Shown here piece after piece: positions 17,981 to 23,702 of a stretch of 64,000 bases of DNA (position 1 is its first letter; each line of letters starts with the position of its first letter). A program made the position numbers and the translations under genes. Below the pieces are notes generated by a model that had not been told where the DNA came from, did not search any database, and saw nothing but the letters and a program-made list of their open reading frames with translations. This DNA is from an uncultured Candidatus Saccharibacteria bacterium (GTDB lineage Bacteria; Patescibacteriota; Minisyncoccia; Phycocordibacterales; CSBR16-119), in assembly GCA_964589975.1 (NCBI GenBank), contig CAZPVH010000001.1, positions 164,853 to 228,852 of the forward strand, in the 5' to 3' direction.

Positions 17981-18256
17981 CTAAATGTTATCCTTAATCC
18001 ACATAGAATGCTTGTCAGTTAGACCACCCCAAGCGGCAGCGTCACTTGTAATATTTATTACAAGCAACCGATCGTTGCTGTCAATGTATGAATTCGTGAT
18101 TGTGTCACGAACCTCTTTTGCTGACTTACCAGTCTTAATTAACCACAATGATTCTAGTGGTTTAACGAAGCCTGAGTATGTCTGAAGATGGTCCCAAAGA
18201 GCTTGATAGTTTTTTTCAGGACTACGAAGATCATAGTTAATGAGAATTGTGTTCAA
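17981..18256 (-). CDS. Hypothetical 91-aa protein at the edge of the AT-rich island
   Basis: MNTILINYDLRSPEKNYQALWDHLQTY...; N-terminal beta-strand ILINYDL is reminiscent of Cas2/VapD-like ferredoxin folds but is unverified. Confidence 0.45.
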   Translation of the reverse strand: MNTILINYDLRSPEKNYQALWDHLQTYSGFVKPLESLWLIKTGKSAKEVRDTITNSYIDSNDRLLVINITSDAAAWGGLTDKHSMWIKDNI

Positions 18257-18475
18257 GTGTCTGTTGATATCTTTACTGTTAAATGCAGACTGTCAGTGAT
18301 ATATTTGTAGTGTAGTTACATATCGGTTATTTTGAACGCGAGACGACCTGATAGAGGGTTACCAATTCGCGGAAAATGTTCAATCTGGAAAGGCTGCCTC
18401 AATATGGCAGCTTTTCGTTTATATTTTATGCTATAGGGGTTTTCTGTCAACCTTGTCAACTATGTGGAAAAGTAT

Positions 18476-18503
18476 TTGCTAACTTTTGACAAGGTAGTAT
18501 AAT
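18476..18503 (+). promoter_or_regulatory. Promoter for the LexA-like gene (leaderless; TATAAT 6 nt before the ATG) with flanking inverted repeats
   Basis: ttgcta-N16-tataat; inverted repeat CTTGTCAA (18451-18458) / TTGACAAG (18487-18494); tandem TGTCAAC x2. Confidence 0.4.
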
Positions 18504-18509
18504 GTTCAC

Positions 18510-19154
18510 ATGCATCCAATACAAGAAAAGTTACTAAAAATCATTAGTGAGAAGAATATTGGGGATCTCACACTACGTGATATCGGTGATCTAATTGCCG
18601 AAAAGTTACCTCAGAAGATTAAACACCACCTTTTTCAGCTTGAGAGGAAGGGGTTTATTGTTGTCGACAAGAAAAAAAAGTCTATCACTAGAGTGATCGG
18701 TGCAAAAAAGACTCCAAAAGAAATGTTTATTTCCTTACCTATAGTCGGATCAGCTAATTGTGGTCCTCAAACTATTTATGCCGAACAAAACATTGAAGGT
18801 TATTTGAAAGTCTCTAAAAGAATAGTTCCAAAGGCTAATAATGTATTTATACTTCGTGCTGAAGGAAATTCATTGAATAGAGCAGACATAAAAGGTAAGA
18901 GTGTAGAGGATGGTGATTTTGTCATTGTTGATAGTGAAAGTACATCTCCAAAAAATAATGATTATATTGTTTCGATAATTAGTGGCTTGGCAAATATTAA
19001 AAAATACGTGTTTGATAAAGAAAATTCACAAATTGTCCTACTCTCAGAATCTTCACAACATTTTGATCCCATATTTATACATCAAGATGATGATTTTAGG
19101 GTTAACGGTAAAGTGATTGGCGTAATTAAAAAACCTAAGTTTATTAGCCATTAG
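18510..19154 (+). CDS. LexA-like repressor (N-terminal winged-helix plus C-terminal S24 autopeptidase)
   Basis: wHTH N-domain; PIVGSANCGP cleavage-site region, S24 Ser (AEGNSL) and Lys (ANIKKY); very low GC. Confidence 0.75.
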   Translation: MHPIQEKLLKIISEKNIGDLTLRDIGDLIAEKLPQKIKHHLFQLERKGFIVVDKKKKSITRVIGAKKTPKEMFISLPIVGSANCGPQTIYAEQNIEGYLKVSKRIVPKANNVFILRAEGNSLNRADIKGKSVEDGDFVIVDSESTSPKNNDYIVSIISGLANIKKYVFDKENSQIVLLSESSQHFDPIFIHQDDDFRVNGKVIGVIKKPKFISH

Positions 19155-19162
19155 TTAGTTAA

Positions 19163-19927
19163 TTGATTATAATTACATTTATGAAAACTGTTGAGTGTAT
19201 AAAAATAAAAATTGAAAAAAAGCAGACACCTCTAGATTGGAACGATTGGAAAAATACTATCCAACAAATGGATTGTTTGACTGGCCTACAACACATCCCA
19301 GATGGTTCTATTGATTTAATTGTTACAGATCCGCCTTACGGAATAAGTAAACAACTAAATTGTAAAGGAAAGAGGCTTGGATCAACAGCTAAACTAGATT
19401 TTGATTTCGGTGAGTGGGATACTTTTAGCAAGGACTGGTTCCATATCGCCGTAAAAAAGACTCGTGGGTGGATGATGACTTTTTGTGCAAAAAAAGATGT
19501 TGGCTTTTTTATTGACACTCTAGAGAAAGAAGGCTTTATAGCTGTTGATGTATTGGTTTGGCAAAAACCTGATCCGGTCCCTCTTAATGCAAAATCACGC
19601 TTTTTAAACGCATGGGAAGCTGTTGTTATAGGTAAGCGTCCAGGTTCAACTTGGAATAGCACTTATGAGCACAATATAATCAAATGCCAAGCTCCAAAGG
19701 GTAAAAATAGATTTCATCCAACACAAAAACCAGTTGAATTGATTAAAAAACTTATATCATTGGCAACGAAAGAAGGAGATATTGTTCTTGACCCATTTAT
19801 GGGTAGCGGAACTACTGCGGTTGCATGTGTAGAATCAAAAAGAAACTATATTGGTTTTGAATTATCAAAGGAATACCACAAGATGGCGCTAAATAGAATT
19901 AAAGAGTTGCCCACTCAACTATTTTAA
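19163..19927 (+). CDS. DNA methyltransferase, beta-class (N6-adenine or N4-cytosine), M1
   Basis: motif IV LIVTDPPYG near the N-terminus, HPTQKP, motif I DIVLDPFMGSGTT near the C-terminus; 9 nt after the LexA-like stop. Confidence 0.85.
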   Translation: MIIITFMKTVECIKIKIEKKQTPLDWNDWKNTIQQMDCLTGLQHIPDGSIDLIVTDPPYGISKQLNCKGKRLGSTAKLDFDFGEWDTFSKDWFHIAVKKTRGWMMTFCAKKDVGFFIDTLEKEGFIAVDVLVWQKPDPVPLNAKSRFLNAWEAVVIGKRPGSTWNSTYEHNIIKCQAPKGKNRFHPTQKPVELIKKLISLATKEGDIVLDPFMGSGTTAVACVESKRNYIGFELSKEYHKMALNRIKELPTQLF

Positions 19928-20911
19928 TTTTTGGTCTGATGAATAAATAAGTTTTGCTTTGATATCTCGTGCGTCCTTAACAGATAAGGAGGCTTGCTTC
20001 CTTCTTATTTCTTTACCTTGATCTTTATACCTTACTTCTTTTACTTTTAATTTCTTTTTAAGTAATTTAACAATCTTTTTTGTATCTGCTTCGTATATTT
20101 TTTTTACAACAAAATCATTTTTATCAACGGTGGCAAGAATTATGCTTTTATCTGTCATGTATTTCTTCAAAACATCTTTTGAAATATCTTGAAAACTCCA
20201 ACTCGATCCTTTTGCCACTTTGTATTCATACATATTACCAAAAGCATCTGTAGCGTCATGTTTTGATTGTTCAGACTGAACCTTATGTCCTAAGCGCAAA
20301 GCTACTAAAACCTCCCAAAACTTGTTGCTAGTTAAAATGTCACTGGTGCCAACCTGCTGTTCAATTTTTAAAATAACGTCAACAATCTTTTTAATCCATT
20401 CAGAATAAATTCCAGAGCACAATCCCGTGGTTGTCTTTTTTTTGAAAGCCAGGGTTGTTTCGATCTGCCTAGGTCCCACATTGATCATTTTTCTATTATT
20501 AGTAATTCGTTTTGTAGCTTCAAATAGATACCCCGATATTATTATTCCGGGAACTTCGTAGTACCAGTCAAATACCGGAAACGGAACATTTTCATCTTGT
20601 ATGTGAGCAAAGATAACACTTTTGGCTTTGATCAATTTCTCGATTGTTGTGTCTGAAAAATCATTAAATGTCCAGGTGTGATTGGAGCTACTCTCCTTGT
20701 AATGCTTATACTCAAATTCGTTACCATCGTCGTCTTTTGCGTCTCTTGATCCTGAATGACCAGAAATAAGCTTATGATTCAACGTGTCAGCGATAAGTAC
20801 CTCAAATATCTTACTATTTGTTATAATGTCTGTAACACCGAAGGTGGCATAGAAATCAGCCTGAATTTTCTTGAGTTGCCCTATAAGGTTTTCTGTGTCA
20901 TTAGTGTCCAT
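19919..20911 (-). CDS. Putative restriction endonuclease with two tandem PD-(D/E)xK modules (single-chain pseudo-dimer)
   Basis: internal repeat: ...FEVLIADTLNHKLISG...DAKDDDGNEFEYK... and ...WEVLVALRLGHKVQSE...DATDAFGNMYEYK...; each has a D...EYK catalytic signature; flanked by two methyltransferases. Confidence 0.6.
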   Translation of the reverse strand: MDTNDTENLIGQLKKIQADFYATFGVTDIITNSKIFEVLIADTLNHKLISGHSGSRDAKDDDGNEFEYKHYKESSSNHTWTFNDFSDTTIEKLIKAKSVIFAHIQDENVPFPVFDWYYEVPGIIISGYLFEATKRITNNRKMINVGPRQIETTLAFKKKTTTGLCSGIYSEWIKKIVDVILKIEQQVGTSDILTSNKFWEVLVALRLGHKVQSEQSKHDATDAFGNMYEYKVAKGSSWSFQDISKDVLKKYMTDKSIILATVDKNDFVVKKIYEADTKKIVKLLKKKLKVKEVRYKDQGKEIRRKQASLSVKDARDIKAKLIYSSDQKLK

Positions 20912-20914
20912 ATA

Positions 20915-21736
20915 ATGAAAACTATATCAATAAAAACTAAAATAAGCACTACCGACGAAAACGCATTGATTTTTGGTGATGCAATAGCAATTTTAAAATC
21001 CCTACCTGATAATTCAGTTGATCATTGTTTTACTGATCCGCCATATAACATATCTGGATACGACAATAAGAAAAAGATAGGCTGGCTTCAGTCAAACAAG
21101 ACATGGGTTGAAGAAAAGAAATTTACAAAGATAGATGCAAAGTGGGATAAATTTTCCGACGACGATTATGTTGCTTTTACCAAAGCGTGGATATTGGAAG
21201 TTATGAGGGTTTTGAAACCAAACGGTAATATTATTATTTTCGGTTCGTATCATAATATCTATAAAATTGGTTCCATACTCCAAGATTTTGATCGAAAATT
21301 AATAAATTCTATTACATGGTATAAAAGAAATGCCTTTCCAAATGTAACGCAAAGAATGTTTTGTGAAAGCACAGAGCATATTATCTGGGCTGTAAATGAG
21401 ACACAGAAAAAAGCAAAGAATTGGAAATTTAATTATAAGGAAATGAAGGCCTTAAATGGAGGTGTCCAGATGAGAAACATGTGGGACATTGTCGCAACTC
21501 CAACATCAGAGCGAGCTCATGGTAAGCACCCATCGCAAAAGCCAATCGAGATATTAAATCGTCTAGTAATAGGATGTAGTAATAAGGGCGACGTTATTAT
21601 CGATCCATTTATGGGTAGCGGCACCTTGCCCGTTGCTGCACAGATTAATGGCCGGAAATACATTGGTATTGATAGTGAGAAGGAATTTTGTGACCTTGCT
21701 CTAAAGAGGGTTAGGGCTAAAGAAAACCGATTATAA
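20915..21736 (+). CDS. DNA methyltransferase, beta-class (N6-adenine or N4-cytosine), M2
   Basis: FTDPPYN, HPSQKP, DPFMGSGT; ATG only 3 bp from the divergent endonuclease start codon. Confidence 0.85.
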   Translation: MKTISIKTKISTTDENALIFGDAIAILKSLPDNSVDHCFTDPPYNISGYDNKKKIGWLQSNKTWVEEKKFTKIDAKWDKFSDDDYVAFTKAWILEVMRVLKPNGNIIIFGSYHNIYKIGSILQDFDRKLINSITWYKRNAFPNVTQRMFCESTEHIIWAVNETQKKAKNWKFNYKEMKALNGGVQMRNMWDIVATPTSERAHGKHPSQKPIEILNRLVIGCSNKGDVIIDPFMGSGTLPVAAQINGRKYIGIDSEKEFCDLALKRVRAKENRL

Positions 21737-21743
21737 TAAATTT

Positions 21744-22688
21744 ATGCCACTATTTAAAATATATAACAATAAAGTAACAAAAATTGAAAAACGTAATATT
21801 CTTGAAAAAGATATTCAAAAGATAATAGAAGAAAATCTTCTAGAGATATTAGATATATACTTCCTAGGTACAGAATTTGTTACTACTGATGGACGAATAG
21901 ATTCCGTAGGTTTGGACAAGCATGGGTCGCCAGTAATTATTGAATATAAGAGATCCCAAAATAATAGCGTTATAAATCAAGCTACTTGGTATCTAGAATG
22001 GCTACTTGATCATAAAGAAAAGTTTGAAAAGCTTGTTGAAGATAAGTTAAAAAAACATTTTGTTAATGAGCTAAAAGATACTATGGAGCCAGTAGATTTT
22101 CCTACAATTGATTGGATGAATCCGCGCCTTATTTGTATAGCGGAAAGTTATAATAAATTTGATCTTGGCCTCGTGAAGTTTTTACCATTTAAAATTGAAC
22201 TTTTGAAATATCGTCTCTATGATGATCTATTGTCTATCGAGTCAGAGAATATACAAAAAGGTATGAGGATTAGTGAAAGAACAAACTCATTAGCAATTGA
22301 TGAAGATAGTAAGCCTATTAGAGAATACGGTAAGGAATATTTAATAACTGATCTGTTTAAAGATAGTTGGGCAGAGAGTCGTGAGCTCTTTGAGCAAATT
22401 CGTGAGAAAATTTTGGAGTTGGATAGTAATATTGAAGAGAAAATAACAAAACTTTATATTAGTTATAAAACAGAGAATATTTTCTGTGAGATAATACCTC
22501 AAGCTAAGGGCTTATGGATCCATGTCACAATTCCTATTGATAATGTTATGAAAAACAAAATAGAACTTCATGACGTAAGCGAGAAAGGGCACTGGGGAAC
22601 AGGCGAGACAAAATTCAGAGTAGAAAAACCATCTGAGGTAGATCTCGCTGTAGATTATATTAAGCAATCTTATGAGTTTGGCTTATAG
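21744..22688 (+). CDS. NucS/RecB-like PD-(D/E)xK nuclease-domain protein with an unknown C-terminal domain
   Basis: TDGRIDSVGLDKHGSPVIIEYKR matches the NucS/DUF91 nuclease core; about 200 aa C-terminal region unassigned; 7 nt after M2. Confidence 0.55.
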   Translation: MPLFKIYNNKVTKIEKRNILEKDIQKIIEENLLEILDIYFLGTEFVTTDGRIDSVGLDKHGSPVIIEYKRSQNNSVINQATWYLEWLLDHKEKFEKLVEDKLKKHFVNELKDTMEPVDFPTIDWMNPRLICIAESYNKFDLGLVKFLPFKIELLKYRLYDDLLSIESENIQKGMRISERTNSLAIDEDSKPIREYGKEYLITDLFKDSWAESRELFEQIREKILELDSNIEEKITKLYISYKTENIFCEIIPQAKGLWIHVTIPIDNVMKNKIELHDVSEKGHWGTGETKFRVEKPSEVDLAVDYIKQSYEFGL

Positions 22689-22697
22689 TGAATCTGT

Positions 22698-23261: not shown

Positions 23262-23317
23262 CCCTATAACTACGACCCATCCCATATACACCCACCAATA
23301 CATAACGTTATTAATCC

Positions 23318-23340
23318 CTAATTCGCGCGAATTAGCGAAT
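23318..23340. repeat. 23-bp repeat copy 1 containing the palindrome ATTCGCGCGAAT
   Basis: ctaattcgcgcgaattagcgaat; second copy at 23680-23702 with one mismatch. Confidence 0.7.
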
Positions 23341-23432: not shown

Positions 23433-23696
23433 ATGAAGAATCTAGAGCGCATAATAAAAGCTCTTGCTAATGGCCGACGTATGGCTATCGTTAGATATTT
23501 AGGGAAGCATAAAGGTTCAACTGTCGGAGACATTGCTCGGAATATAAAGTTATCTTTTAAATCGACTTCGAAGCACCTTGCGATACTTTACGCCGCAGAG
23601 CTGGTGGACAAAGAGCAAACAAGTATTTTGGTTAAATACTTTTTACCAAAGAAGCCTCACCCACTGGTAAAGTTTATCTCTAATTCGCGCGAATAA
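23433..23696 (+). CDS. ArsR/SmtB-family winged-helix transcriptional regulator
   Basis: IVRYLGKHKGSTVGDIARNIKLSFKSTSKHLAILYAAELV HTH pattern; 87 aa. Confidence 0.65.
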   Translation: MKNLERIIKALANGRRMAIVRYLGKHKGSTVGDIARNIKLSFKSTSKHLAILYAAELVDKEQTSILVKYFLPKKPHPLVKFISNSRE

Positions 23697-23702
23697 GCGA
23701 AT
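23680..23702. repeat. 23-bp repeat copy 2 (overlaps the ArsR stop codon and abuts the GIY-YIG start)
   Basis: ctaattcgcgcgaataagcgaat. Confidence 0.7.

Follow-up and report, generated by a model that had tools for sequence, protein, structure and literature searches.

A PDC-S18 protein with a predicted NucS-like nuclease and a DUF5655 domain beside a Type II restriction-modification system in a Saccharibacteria genome: a candidate Type IV-like enzyme

We analysed the last gene of a low-GC (guanine-plus-cytosine) island in a 64,000-nucleotide (nt) stretch of an uncultured Candidatus Saccharibacteria genome (contig CAZPVH010000001.1; this whole stretch is called the window). The open reading frame (ORF) at positions 21744–22688 starts with ATG, stops with TAG and encodes, in 945 nt, a protein of 314 amino acids (aa) in which a predicted PD-(D/E)xK nuclease is followed by a DUF5655 domain. 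Because an ORF of this length lies in DNA of 31–35% GC, and because a homologue search returned 2146 relatives at E≤1e-3, the closest of which (apart from itself) were 68–69% identical over 100% of the length and had the N-terminus MPLFK in common, the ORF is a real gene and not a chance reading frame. The DNA methyltransferase gene M2 of a Type II restriction-modification (R-M) system ends on the same strand with a TAA at 21736, leaving a gap of 7 nt (taaattt). The coordinates and letters thus agreed with the initial annotation, which had reported the ORF, its motif and its position co-directional with M2. No terminator-like site was seen when one was looked for between M2 and the ORF; therefore, the two genes are probably co-transcribed as one operon. 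The features of the gene and of its island are listed in Table 1.

Table 1. Positions of the domains and motifs of the PDC-S18 gene and of the genes of its island, in window coordinates.
Feature	Position	Strand	Basis
Complete ORF: predicted NucS-like nuclease, linker and DUF5655	21744..22688	+	ORF list, PADLOC, homologues
Predicted N-terminal PD-(D/E)xK nuclease domain, NucS/EndoMS/Shedu type, aa 1–167	21744..22244	+	AlphaFold2 model, Foldseek, Pfam, alignment
Predicted catalytic motif TDGRIDSVGLDKHGSPVIIEYKR, aa 48–70 (D53, E67, K69)	21885..21953	+	Invariant in 50 homologues; NucS alignment
QxxxY motif (Q79...Y83) of RecB/NucS-type nucleases	21978..21992	+	Invariant; aligned to NucS Q187/Y191
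Disordered, poorly conserved inter-domain linker, aa 171–195	22254..22328	+	pLDDT <50; variable columns
C-terminal DUF5655 domain, aa 200–314, helix/antiparallel sheet/helix sandwich	22341..22685	+	Pfam, domain-only model, Foldseek
Low-GC island: LexA-like gene, M1, R, M2 and the ORF (last gene)	18000..22690		500-nt GC windows
LexA-like protein, helix-turn-helix (HTH) and S24 peptidase, first island gene	18510..19154	+	Domain matches; promoter-like site 18476–18503
M1, N6/N4 DNA methyltransferase	19163..19927	+	Profile matches
R, Type II restriction endonuclease, two tandem PvuII-like halves	19919..20911	-	Endonuc-PvuII aa 186–303; REase_II aa 10–102
M2, CcrM-like N6/N4 DNA methyltransferase	20915..21736	+	Profile matches; start M54 inferred

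The whole protein was modelled with AlphaFold2 on 50 homologues (mean predicted local distance difference test score, pLDDT, 86.6), and conservation was read from an alignment of 50 homologues that were 42–72% identical to the query. The model consisted of two domains, with strands and helices up to aa 167 and then a linker of low confidence at aa 171–195. D53, E67, K69, Q79 and Y83 were invariant in 50/50 homologues. Eight further residues of the nuclease domain were also invariant (E21, Q25, E44, R128, N137, D140, E152 and Y159), and a variable insertion was found at about aa 100–125. Since R128, N137, D140, E152 and Y159 lie in the second half of the fold, the nuclease domain extends about 100 residues further than first thought. 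A profile search of the PDB paired the five motif residues with D160, E174, K176, Q187 and Y191 of Pyrococcus abyssi NucS (2vld), which we take to be the catalytic residues of that enzyme (Ren et al. 2009). This NucS match, the only one of the search for the nuclease, was marginal (E = 0.41). In Foldseek, the best matches of the nuclease domain were EndoMS/NucS 5gke (E = 1e-4) and 2vld, followed by Shedu SduA 8ps5 (E = 5e-3), SfsA and the nuclease domains of Cap4 and Card1. Pfam NucS_C matched aa 22–90 with E = 1e-4 and 22.7 bits, slightly below the cut-off of 24 bits, and the same family (PF01939) is carried by many close homologues in the precomputed Pfam list. Motif, profile (NucS_C, NCBIfam, PDB) and fold (5gke, 2vld) thus all support the N-terminal NucS/RecB-type core proposed in the initial annotation. 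As judged from these matches and the model, residues 1–167 are predicted to be a PD-(D/E)xK nuclease of NucS/RecB type in which the active site is conserved.

NucS/EndoMS (2vld, 5gke) was the best structural match, with the PD-(D/E)xK core and the D, ExK and QxxxY residues in common. However, NucS/EndoMS has an N-terminal DNA-binding and dimerisation domain, whereas the window protein gave no NucS_N match and carries DUF5655 instead; a clamp-binding tail was not identified in it either. The NCBIfam NucS model matched with E = 9.5e-7 and 28.1 bits against an equivalog cut-off of 216, and a second model gave 20.3 bits against 252. Because the N-terminal domain of NucS is absent and the score is so far below the equivalog cut-off, the window protein is not a NucS orthologue. 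The contexts also differ: that of NucS is repair, and that of the window family is R-M and mobile elements. Shedu SduA (DUF4263), a defence nuclease encoded by one gene, falls into the same structural clade and has a variable accessory domain. SduA carries its nuclease at the C-terminus and its accessory domain at the N-terminus, which is the reverse of the nuclease-then-accessory order of the window protein. Pfam SduA_C did not match the window protein at E≤0.1, and no Shedu model was among its PADLOC matches.

The part of the protein beyond the catalytic core had been described in the initial annotation as an uncharacterised stretch of 200 aa. It is not a single domain, because the nuclease runs to about aa 167 and is separated by the linker from DUF5655. 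Nor does it match nothing, as was first thought: it includes a catalogued Pfam domain, DUF5655 (PF18899), at aa 202–312 (profile positions 2–108 of 109, E = 1e-12, 48.5 bits against a cut-off of 24). A model of the DUF5655 domain alone reached a pLDDT of 93.2 and folded as the sandwich described in Table 1, and homologue alignments showed the conserved positions YIxYK, F247, GHWGxG and QSY. Both domains of the window protein are acidic, and the linker is basic in most homologues (median isoelectric point, pI, 9.7). A sequence search of the PDB found no solved relative of DUF5655, and a Foldseek search of the PDB with the DUF5655 model gave no match below E = 1e-3. The nearest structures, at E = 0.02–0.1, were YjbR (2fki; probability 0.97, template modelling score, TM, 0.47) and YdhG/DUF1801 (2oc6; probability 0.94, TM 0.53); frataxin/CyaY ranked lower. 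YjbR and YdhG have the overall helix-sheet-helix sandwich in common with the C-terminal domain (TM 0.47–0.54), but the likeness is at the level of the fold only (13–14% identity). Since YjbR and YdhG have no established function, this match yields no mechanism for DUF5655. The Foldseek comparison suggested in the initial annotation therefore gave a NucS/Shedu fold for the N-terminal part and a weak YjbR and YdhG/DUF1801 likeness for the C-terminal domain.

The whole protein was matched by the PADLOC model PDLC04946 of PDC-S18 (E = 2.9e-81), with aa 2–311 aligned to positions 22–321 of the 365 in the profile, and a second PDC-S18 model, PDLC04945, matched with E = 1.2e-57. As the whole architecture is covered, the window protein is assigned by profile to PDC-S18. 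Publicly, homologues are named 'DUF5655 domain-containing protein', 'transporter' or, at JGI, 'predicted transport protein'. A transport function is ruled out by the model, which is a soluble two-domain nuclease fold. We take 'predicted transport protein' to be the name of COG3586, to which PDC-S18 probably corresponds. In Kosinski et al. (2005, PMC1189080), COG3586 appears among the putative endonuclease families, seen beside a Type I R-M cluster in Methanosarcina acetivorans. The 145 PDC systems were picked as candidates, still untested, for their location inside BREX, DISARM or Type I R-M systems (Payne et al., bioRxiv 10.1101/2024.01.29.577857), and most of them are without validation according to a 2026 survey of archaeal immunity. 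The name PDC-S18 occurred in no searchable paper and not in the text supplementary files of Payne et al., and DUF5655 was found by name in one unrelated genome note only. In structure, nothing sets the window protein apart from PDC-S18, and it is likewise found next to R-M genes; its gene follows a Type II M-R-M cassette rather than lying inside a Type I, BREX or DISARM system, a slightly unusual position for the family. What is new here is one more PDC-S18 protein in a known candidate family and not a new kind of system.

DUF5655 is also attached to nucleases of other types. A profile search with DUF5655 retrieved 2889 clusters at 50% identity, and a NucS-like N-terminal domain was present in 38 of the top 150. 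The long DUF5655 proteins were mostly Type IV restriction enzymes with an HNH nuclease, in the order GmrSD_N, GmrSD_C and DUF5655 (for example P0145, P0165, P0168, P0176, P0183 and P0188). Other proteins joined DUF5655 to GmrSD_C or HNH, to T5orf172 (P0129 and P0164), which we take to be GIY-YIG-like, or to a weak HSDR_N_2 match; further architectures were ankyrin repeats with DUF5655, tandem DUF5655, and DUF5655 with DUF7662. In the GmrSD, HNH and T5orf172 fusions, and in the weak HSDR_N_2 case, DUF5655 was C-terminal to the nuclease. The GmrSD enzymes with DUF5655 therefore have the same C-terminal domain after a nuclease, and a restriction setting, in common with the window protein. They differ in carrying an HNH nuclease (GmrSD_C) and GmrSD_N, a ParB-like NTPase domain also called DUF262, neither of which is found in the window protein. 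DUF5655 thus looks like a reusable accessory module for nucleases. Because it follows, at the C-terminus, nucleases of several unrelated kinds that all belong to the world of restriction, it behaves like a target-recognition or regulatory module and would not be part of the catalytic core. A 2015 survey of GmrSD reported DUF4268, DUF4357 and DNA_binding_1 as extra domains, and we found no mention of a fusion of DUF5655 to GmrSD or T5orf172 in the literature searched.

The genomic context of the family was surveyed with one genome per species. The scan gave 344 relatives, and 80 loci were fetched; the homologue was located in 77 of them (among L018–L097). Many of the 80 loci were titled Patescibacteria or DPANN, and others came from Gammaproteobacteria, Methanosarcinales, Elusimicrobia and further groups. 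ORFs were called in the fetched loci and R-M genes were counted by local phmmer with an internal distance control; the figures are lower bounds, since the seed sequences cover only some R-M classes. Of the genes that lay up to three positions from the homologue, 15.8% were R-M-like; at a distance of seven or more positions, the share was 1.0% (odds ratio 17.7, Fisher p = 2e-15). An R-M gene lay within two positions in 43% of the 77 loci, and none was detected within five positions in 45%. The position directly downstream (+1) was occupied by an R-M-like gene in 26% of loci and the position directly upstream (-1) in 4%, indicating that the commonest arrangement is [gene]-hsdM-hsdS-hsdR. Downstream R-M-like neighbours were co-directional in 17/19 cases, and 13 of those 17 began within 9 nt of the stop codon. 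A methyltransferase followed directly in 18/73 loci, nearly always co-directionally. Among the immediate neighbours (n=142), the commonest Pfam families were N6_Mtase (12), serine recombinase (8), Eco57I (6) and HsdM_N (5), followed by HSDR_N_2 (5), N6_N4_Mtase (4) and EcoRI_methylase (3); among the second neighbours (n=134), they were Methylase_S (8), N6_N4 (6), D12 (6) and resolvase (6), followed by ResIII, GmrSD_N and HNH (4 each). The adjoining R-M systems belonged to unrelated types and to unrelated methyltransferase classes (HsdM, D12, N6_N4 and EcoRI-like). The gene family is thus tightly coupled in operons to R-M systems of every type. The initial annotation had allowed for a composite defence system; we found no conserved partner gene and no neighbour family in more than about a quarter of the 77 loci. 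These results give no support to a composite system, and PDC-S18 behaves like a single-gene module of Type I, II and III operons.

Six contexts were also sampled singly. Five of the six homologues adjoined Type I, II or III R-M genes and one lay directly after an AAA_13/SMC-like ATPase; an integrase or serine recombinase gene was nearby in 5/6. Two homologues that are 68% identical (L001 and L007) were preceded by a fusion of LexA/S24 to a D12 methyltransferase, a second D12 methyltransferase and a restriction endonuclease on the minus strand. The homologue of L003 was preceded by a Type I system and, immediately upstream, by a separate Shedu gene. Another was located upstream of a Type III Mod-Res pair, and another faces an N6_Mtase and Methylase_S pair. 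The C-terminal domain did not resolve into a housekeeping fold, and homologues adjoined R-M genes and recombinases rather than conserved housekeeping genes, so that the defence reading stands up to the refuting condition set in the initial annotation. The family occurs on 51 plasmid records and in almost no phage records. On a Cupriavidus plasmid the order was hsdM-hsdS-[gene]-hsdR, with a 4-nt overlap; on the Acinetobacter baumannii plasmid pRBH2-4 it was hsdS-[gene]-hsdR, and in Staphylococcus nepalensis hsdR-S-M-S-[gene]-recombinase. Neighbouring M and S genes without HsdR were considered as a split system that uses this nuclease, but this was set aside because they look like complete BcgI-like Type IIB/IIG systems. 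BcgI is the basis for regarding Eco57I/MmeI-type methyltransferases of 570–660 aa together with an S subunit as complete systems of that type.

Two further observations were made in these loci. A PDDEXK_1 gene (Cas4/RecB-like, about 250 aa) directly follows the homologue in L001 (8901–9656) and L003 (8951–9697) and is absent from L007 and from the window; it may be an optional second nuclease partner. Among the 1228 ORFs of the 77 loci there were 62 amino-methyltransferases (N6A/N4C) and a single C5-cytosine methyltransferase, which lay at a distance of six genes from the homologue. The abundance of Type I and III systems among the neighbours accounts for part of this scarcity, a raw count without a background rate; an incompatibility with 5-methylcytosine is another possible cause.

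The island that hosts the gene in the window spans about 18000–22690 and has 31–39% GC, compared with 41–53% in the flanking 500-nt windows. M1, the restriction endonuclease and M2 lie in this island, and the ORF encodes an additional predicted nuclease next to a complete R-M set, as the initial annotation had stated. The two methyltransferases are paralogous, with a shared 38-nt motif that is 79% identical, and flank the restriction endonuclease gene. The two halves of the endonuclease are 43% identical over 84 aa (E = 4e-15). As the halves are in tandem and each has its own D...EYK motif, the enzyme is predicted to be a single-chain pseudo-dimer that arose by tandem duplication. Such a pseudo-dimer would fit an asymmetric recognition site served by two methyltransferases. 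No sequence relative of this endonuclease was found in the PDB. The longest reading frame for M2 begins at 20756 and shares 156 nt with the 5' end of the divergent endonuclease gene. Since the similarity to methyltransferases sets in near residue 62, the start of M2 is probably M54 (20915), 3 nt from the endonuclease start codon, which would place the promoters of M2 and of the endonuclease both inside neighbouring coding sequence.

The island is headed by the LexA-like/S24 gene, whose peptidase part is of the self-cleaving kind, 8 nt before M1. In the relatives L001 (3900–5405) and L007 (3946–5451), LexA/S24 is fused to a D12 methyltransferase in a protein of 501 aa. A conserved LexA-like/nuclease frame around a swappable R-M core was ruled out, because the LexA-like protein of the window is only 25% identical to those of the relatives; the arrangement is therefore convergent and does not represent one shared island. 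The link between LexA-type repressors and R-M systems is apparently recurrent and independent, and the presence of a LexA-type gene with R-M genes hints at SOS-style control of restriction. At the island edge, a 91-aa ORF (17981–18256, minus strand) gave a weak Cas2b-like match (PADLOC E = 0.005) and no Pfam match; it was not similar to the 91-aa ORF of L003. No transfer RNA (tRNA) gene was found in the window, no convincing direct repeats flanked the island borders, and no recombinase was present in the island within the region examined. A 30-nt sequence with the palindrome TAATTCGCGCGAATTA is present in two copies (23311–23340 and 23673–23702, 90% identical) a short way downstream of the island. 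These repeats flank a small HTH-like ORF (23433–23696) and may be an operator pair.

On these grounds, the reading in which we place about half of our confidence is that the protein would act as an autonomous Type IV-like DNA endonuclease and form a second layer behind the Type II system next to it (M1, R and M2). In this reading, the N-terminal 167 residues would cut DNA, and DUF5655, held on the flexible linker, would recognise DNA or sense the substrate and so choose what is cut. The gene would insert into R-M operons as a single-gene module without a cognate methyltransferase of its own. The enzyme would attack foreign DNA that is modified or otherwise marked, as Type IV enzymes do, and here, co-transcribed with M2, it would act against phages that get past the Type II system. 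Our data show the gene, its domain architecture, the conserved active-site residues, the family to which it belongs, the association with R-M genes and the DUF5655 fusions; we infer that the protein is a nuclease, that DUF5655 binds DNA, that the gene has a defence phenotype and that cleavage depends on DNA modification. The lack of an own methyltransferase and the behaviour as a single-gene module in R-M operons make a Type IV-like way of working the most likely. Autonomous action is suggested by the lack of a constant partner, the diversity of R-M types and methyltransferase classes and the 45% of loci without an R-M gene within five positions, and also by the use of DUF5655 in stand-alone GmrSD enzymes. 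The defence role that had been proposed at first, as a Type IV-like arm or an effector, is accordingly the one favoured by the R-M context. Mrr-type Type IV enzymes encoded beside hsd genes (E. coli mrr-hsdRMS) join a DNA-binding module to a PD-(D/E)xK nuclease and have no cognate methyltransferase. The window protein beside its R-M system would follow the same logic, although its domains come in the opposite order and have other folds.

Several points weigh against this reading. The literature contained, as far as we found, no experiment on any PDC-S18 member. DUF5655 is acidic in the window protein (net charge -7, pI 5.0), and its likeness to YjbR and YdhG is weak (TM about 0.5), so that DNA binding is putative. 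Tight operonic coupling to methyltransferases could mean dependence on the R-M system instead of autonomy. Modification dependence is suggested by the analogy with the GmrSD fusions and by the lack of a cognate methyltransferase, and by these only. A wider reading, which we offer tentatively, is that DUF5655 would be a new foreign-DNA sensor, for a base modification, a DNA end or a phage anti-restriction factor, carried by at least three unrelated nuclease types (NucS-type PD-(D/E)xK, GmrSD/HNH and T5orf172), and that NucS-DUF5655 proteins would form a large Type IV-like class. That this class would be especially common in Patescibacteria and DPANN and wired into R-M operons as a second layer is likewise possible but doubtful. 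Within this reading, if the scarcity of C5-methyltransferases reflected 5-methylcytosine incompatibility, a cytosine modification would be suggested as the target.

Other explanations start from the same R-M context. The protein could be a PrrC-like guard or backup. The neighbouring R-M enzyme, or else DUF5655, would hold it latent until an anti-restriction protein of a phage knocks out the R-M system, whereupon it would cut the DNA of the phage or that of the cell itself (abortive infection). The plasmid order hsdM-hsdS-[gene]-hsdR, which we take to be the slot of prrC in the prr locus, is in accord with this, as is the tight operonic coupling to hsd genes; in that case the acidic DUF5655 could be a sensor that binds a protein instead of DNA. 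PrrC is embedded almost exclusively in Type I R-M systems (Payne et al., bioRxiv 10.1101/2024.01.29.577857). However, a specific partnership is hard to reconcile with association to unrelated Type I, II, IIB/G-like and III systems and with the many loci that lack an R-M gene nearby, and DUF5655 is fused to autonomous GmrSD enzymes as well; we consider a guard unlikely. An R-M accessory would recognise the ends or nicks made by restriction and degrade the fragments, rendering restriction irreversible, which would be useful in small genomes without RecBCD or AddAB. An association independent of the R-M type would be consistent with such a role, and so would the many Patescibacteria and DPANN genomes among the fetched loci and the resemblance of the nuclease fold to SduA. 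Shedu SduA is reported to sense DNA ends. Nevertheless, many loci have no R-M system nearby, and the GmrSD fusions of DUF5655 speak for a primary role in recognising foreign DNA rather than for clearing away fragments, which leaves the accessory role rather improbable. A sequence-specific Type II restriction endonuclease cognate to M2, which would make the window carry two R-M pairs, is suggested by the co-directional methyltransferases directly downstream of homologues and by the combination of a nuclease with a separate putative DNA-binding domain, which resembles a restriction enzyme. Yet the putative recognition domain is conserved beside unrelated methyltransferase classes, the gene is often embedded in Type I systems that are already complete, and the paralogous M1 and M2 with a tandem two-half endonuclease already form a complete set for an asymmetric site. 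For the first and last of these reasons, we regard this explanation as very unlikely.

Two further explanations place the protein outside restriction. A role in a mobile element, for example as a nuclease for the integration, excision, maintenance or spread of an island or plasmid, is suggested by large serine recombinases among the immediate (8/142) and second neighbours (5–6/134), by integrases near the gene in four sampled contexts and by the plasmid records. However, the operonic partner is an R-M system and not a recombinase, the island in the window has neither a recombinase nor a tRNA gene in the region examined, and the gene is almost absent from phage records; this role seems quite improbable. 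A housekeeping function in DNA repair, as a NucS/EndoMS-like mismatch endonuclease, has the common catalytic core in its favour. Against it stand the roughly 20 residues that precede the core in place of the NucS N-terminal domain, the equivalog score of 28 bits against 216, the location in a low-GC island and the patchy distribution on plasmids and islands with R-M neighbours, and we give it hardly any credence.

For the M1-R-M2 island of the window, the gene probably adds a second layer of defence. The main value of the finding lies at the level of the family, in DUF5655 on three nuclease types, in the coupling to R-M operons and in the missing C5-methyltransferase neighbours, and the window copy adds little to it. 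If the family is active, it would be among the commonest single-gene companions of R-M systems, given 2146 homologues and 2889 DUF5655 clusters, and it reaches from the small genomes of Patescibacteria and DPANN to plasmids of clinically relevant Acinetobacter baumannii and Staphylococcus. Knowledge of the target of DUF5655 would explain a domain that is common to GmrSD Type IV enzymes and could give a new modification- or structure-specific nuclease tool.

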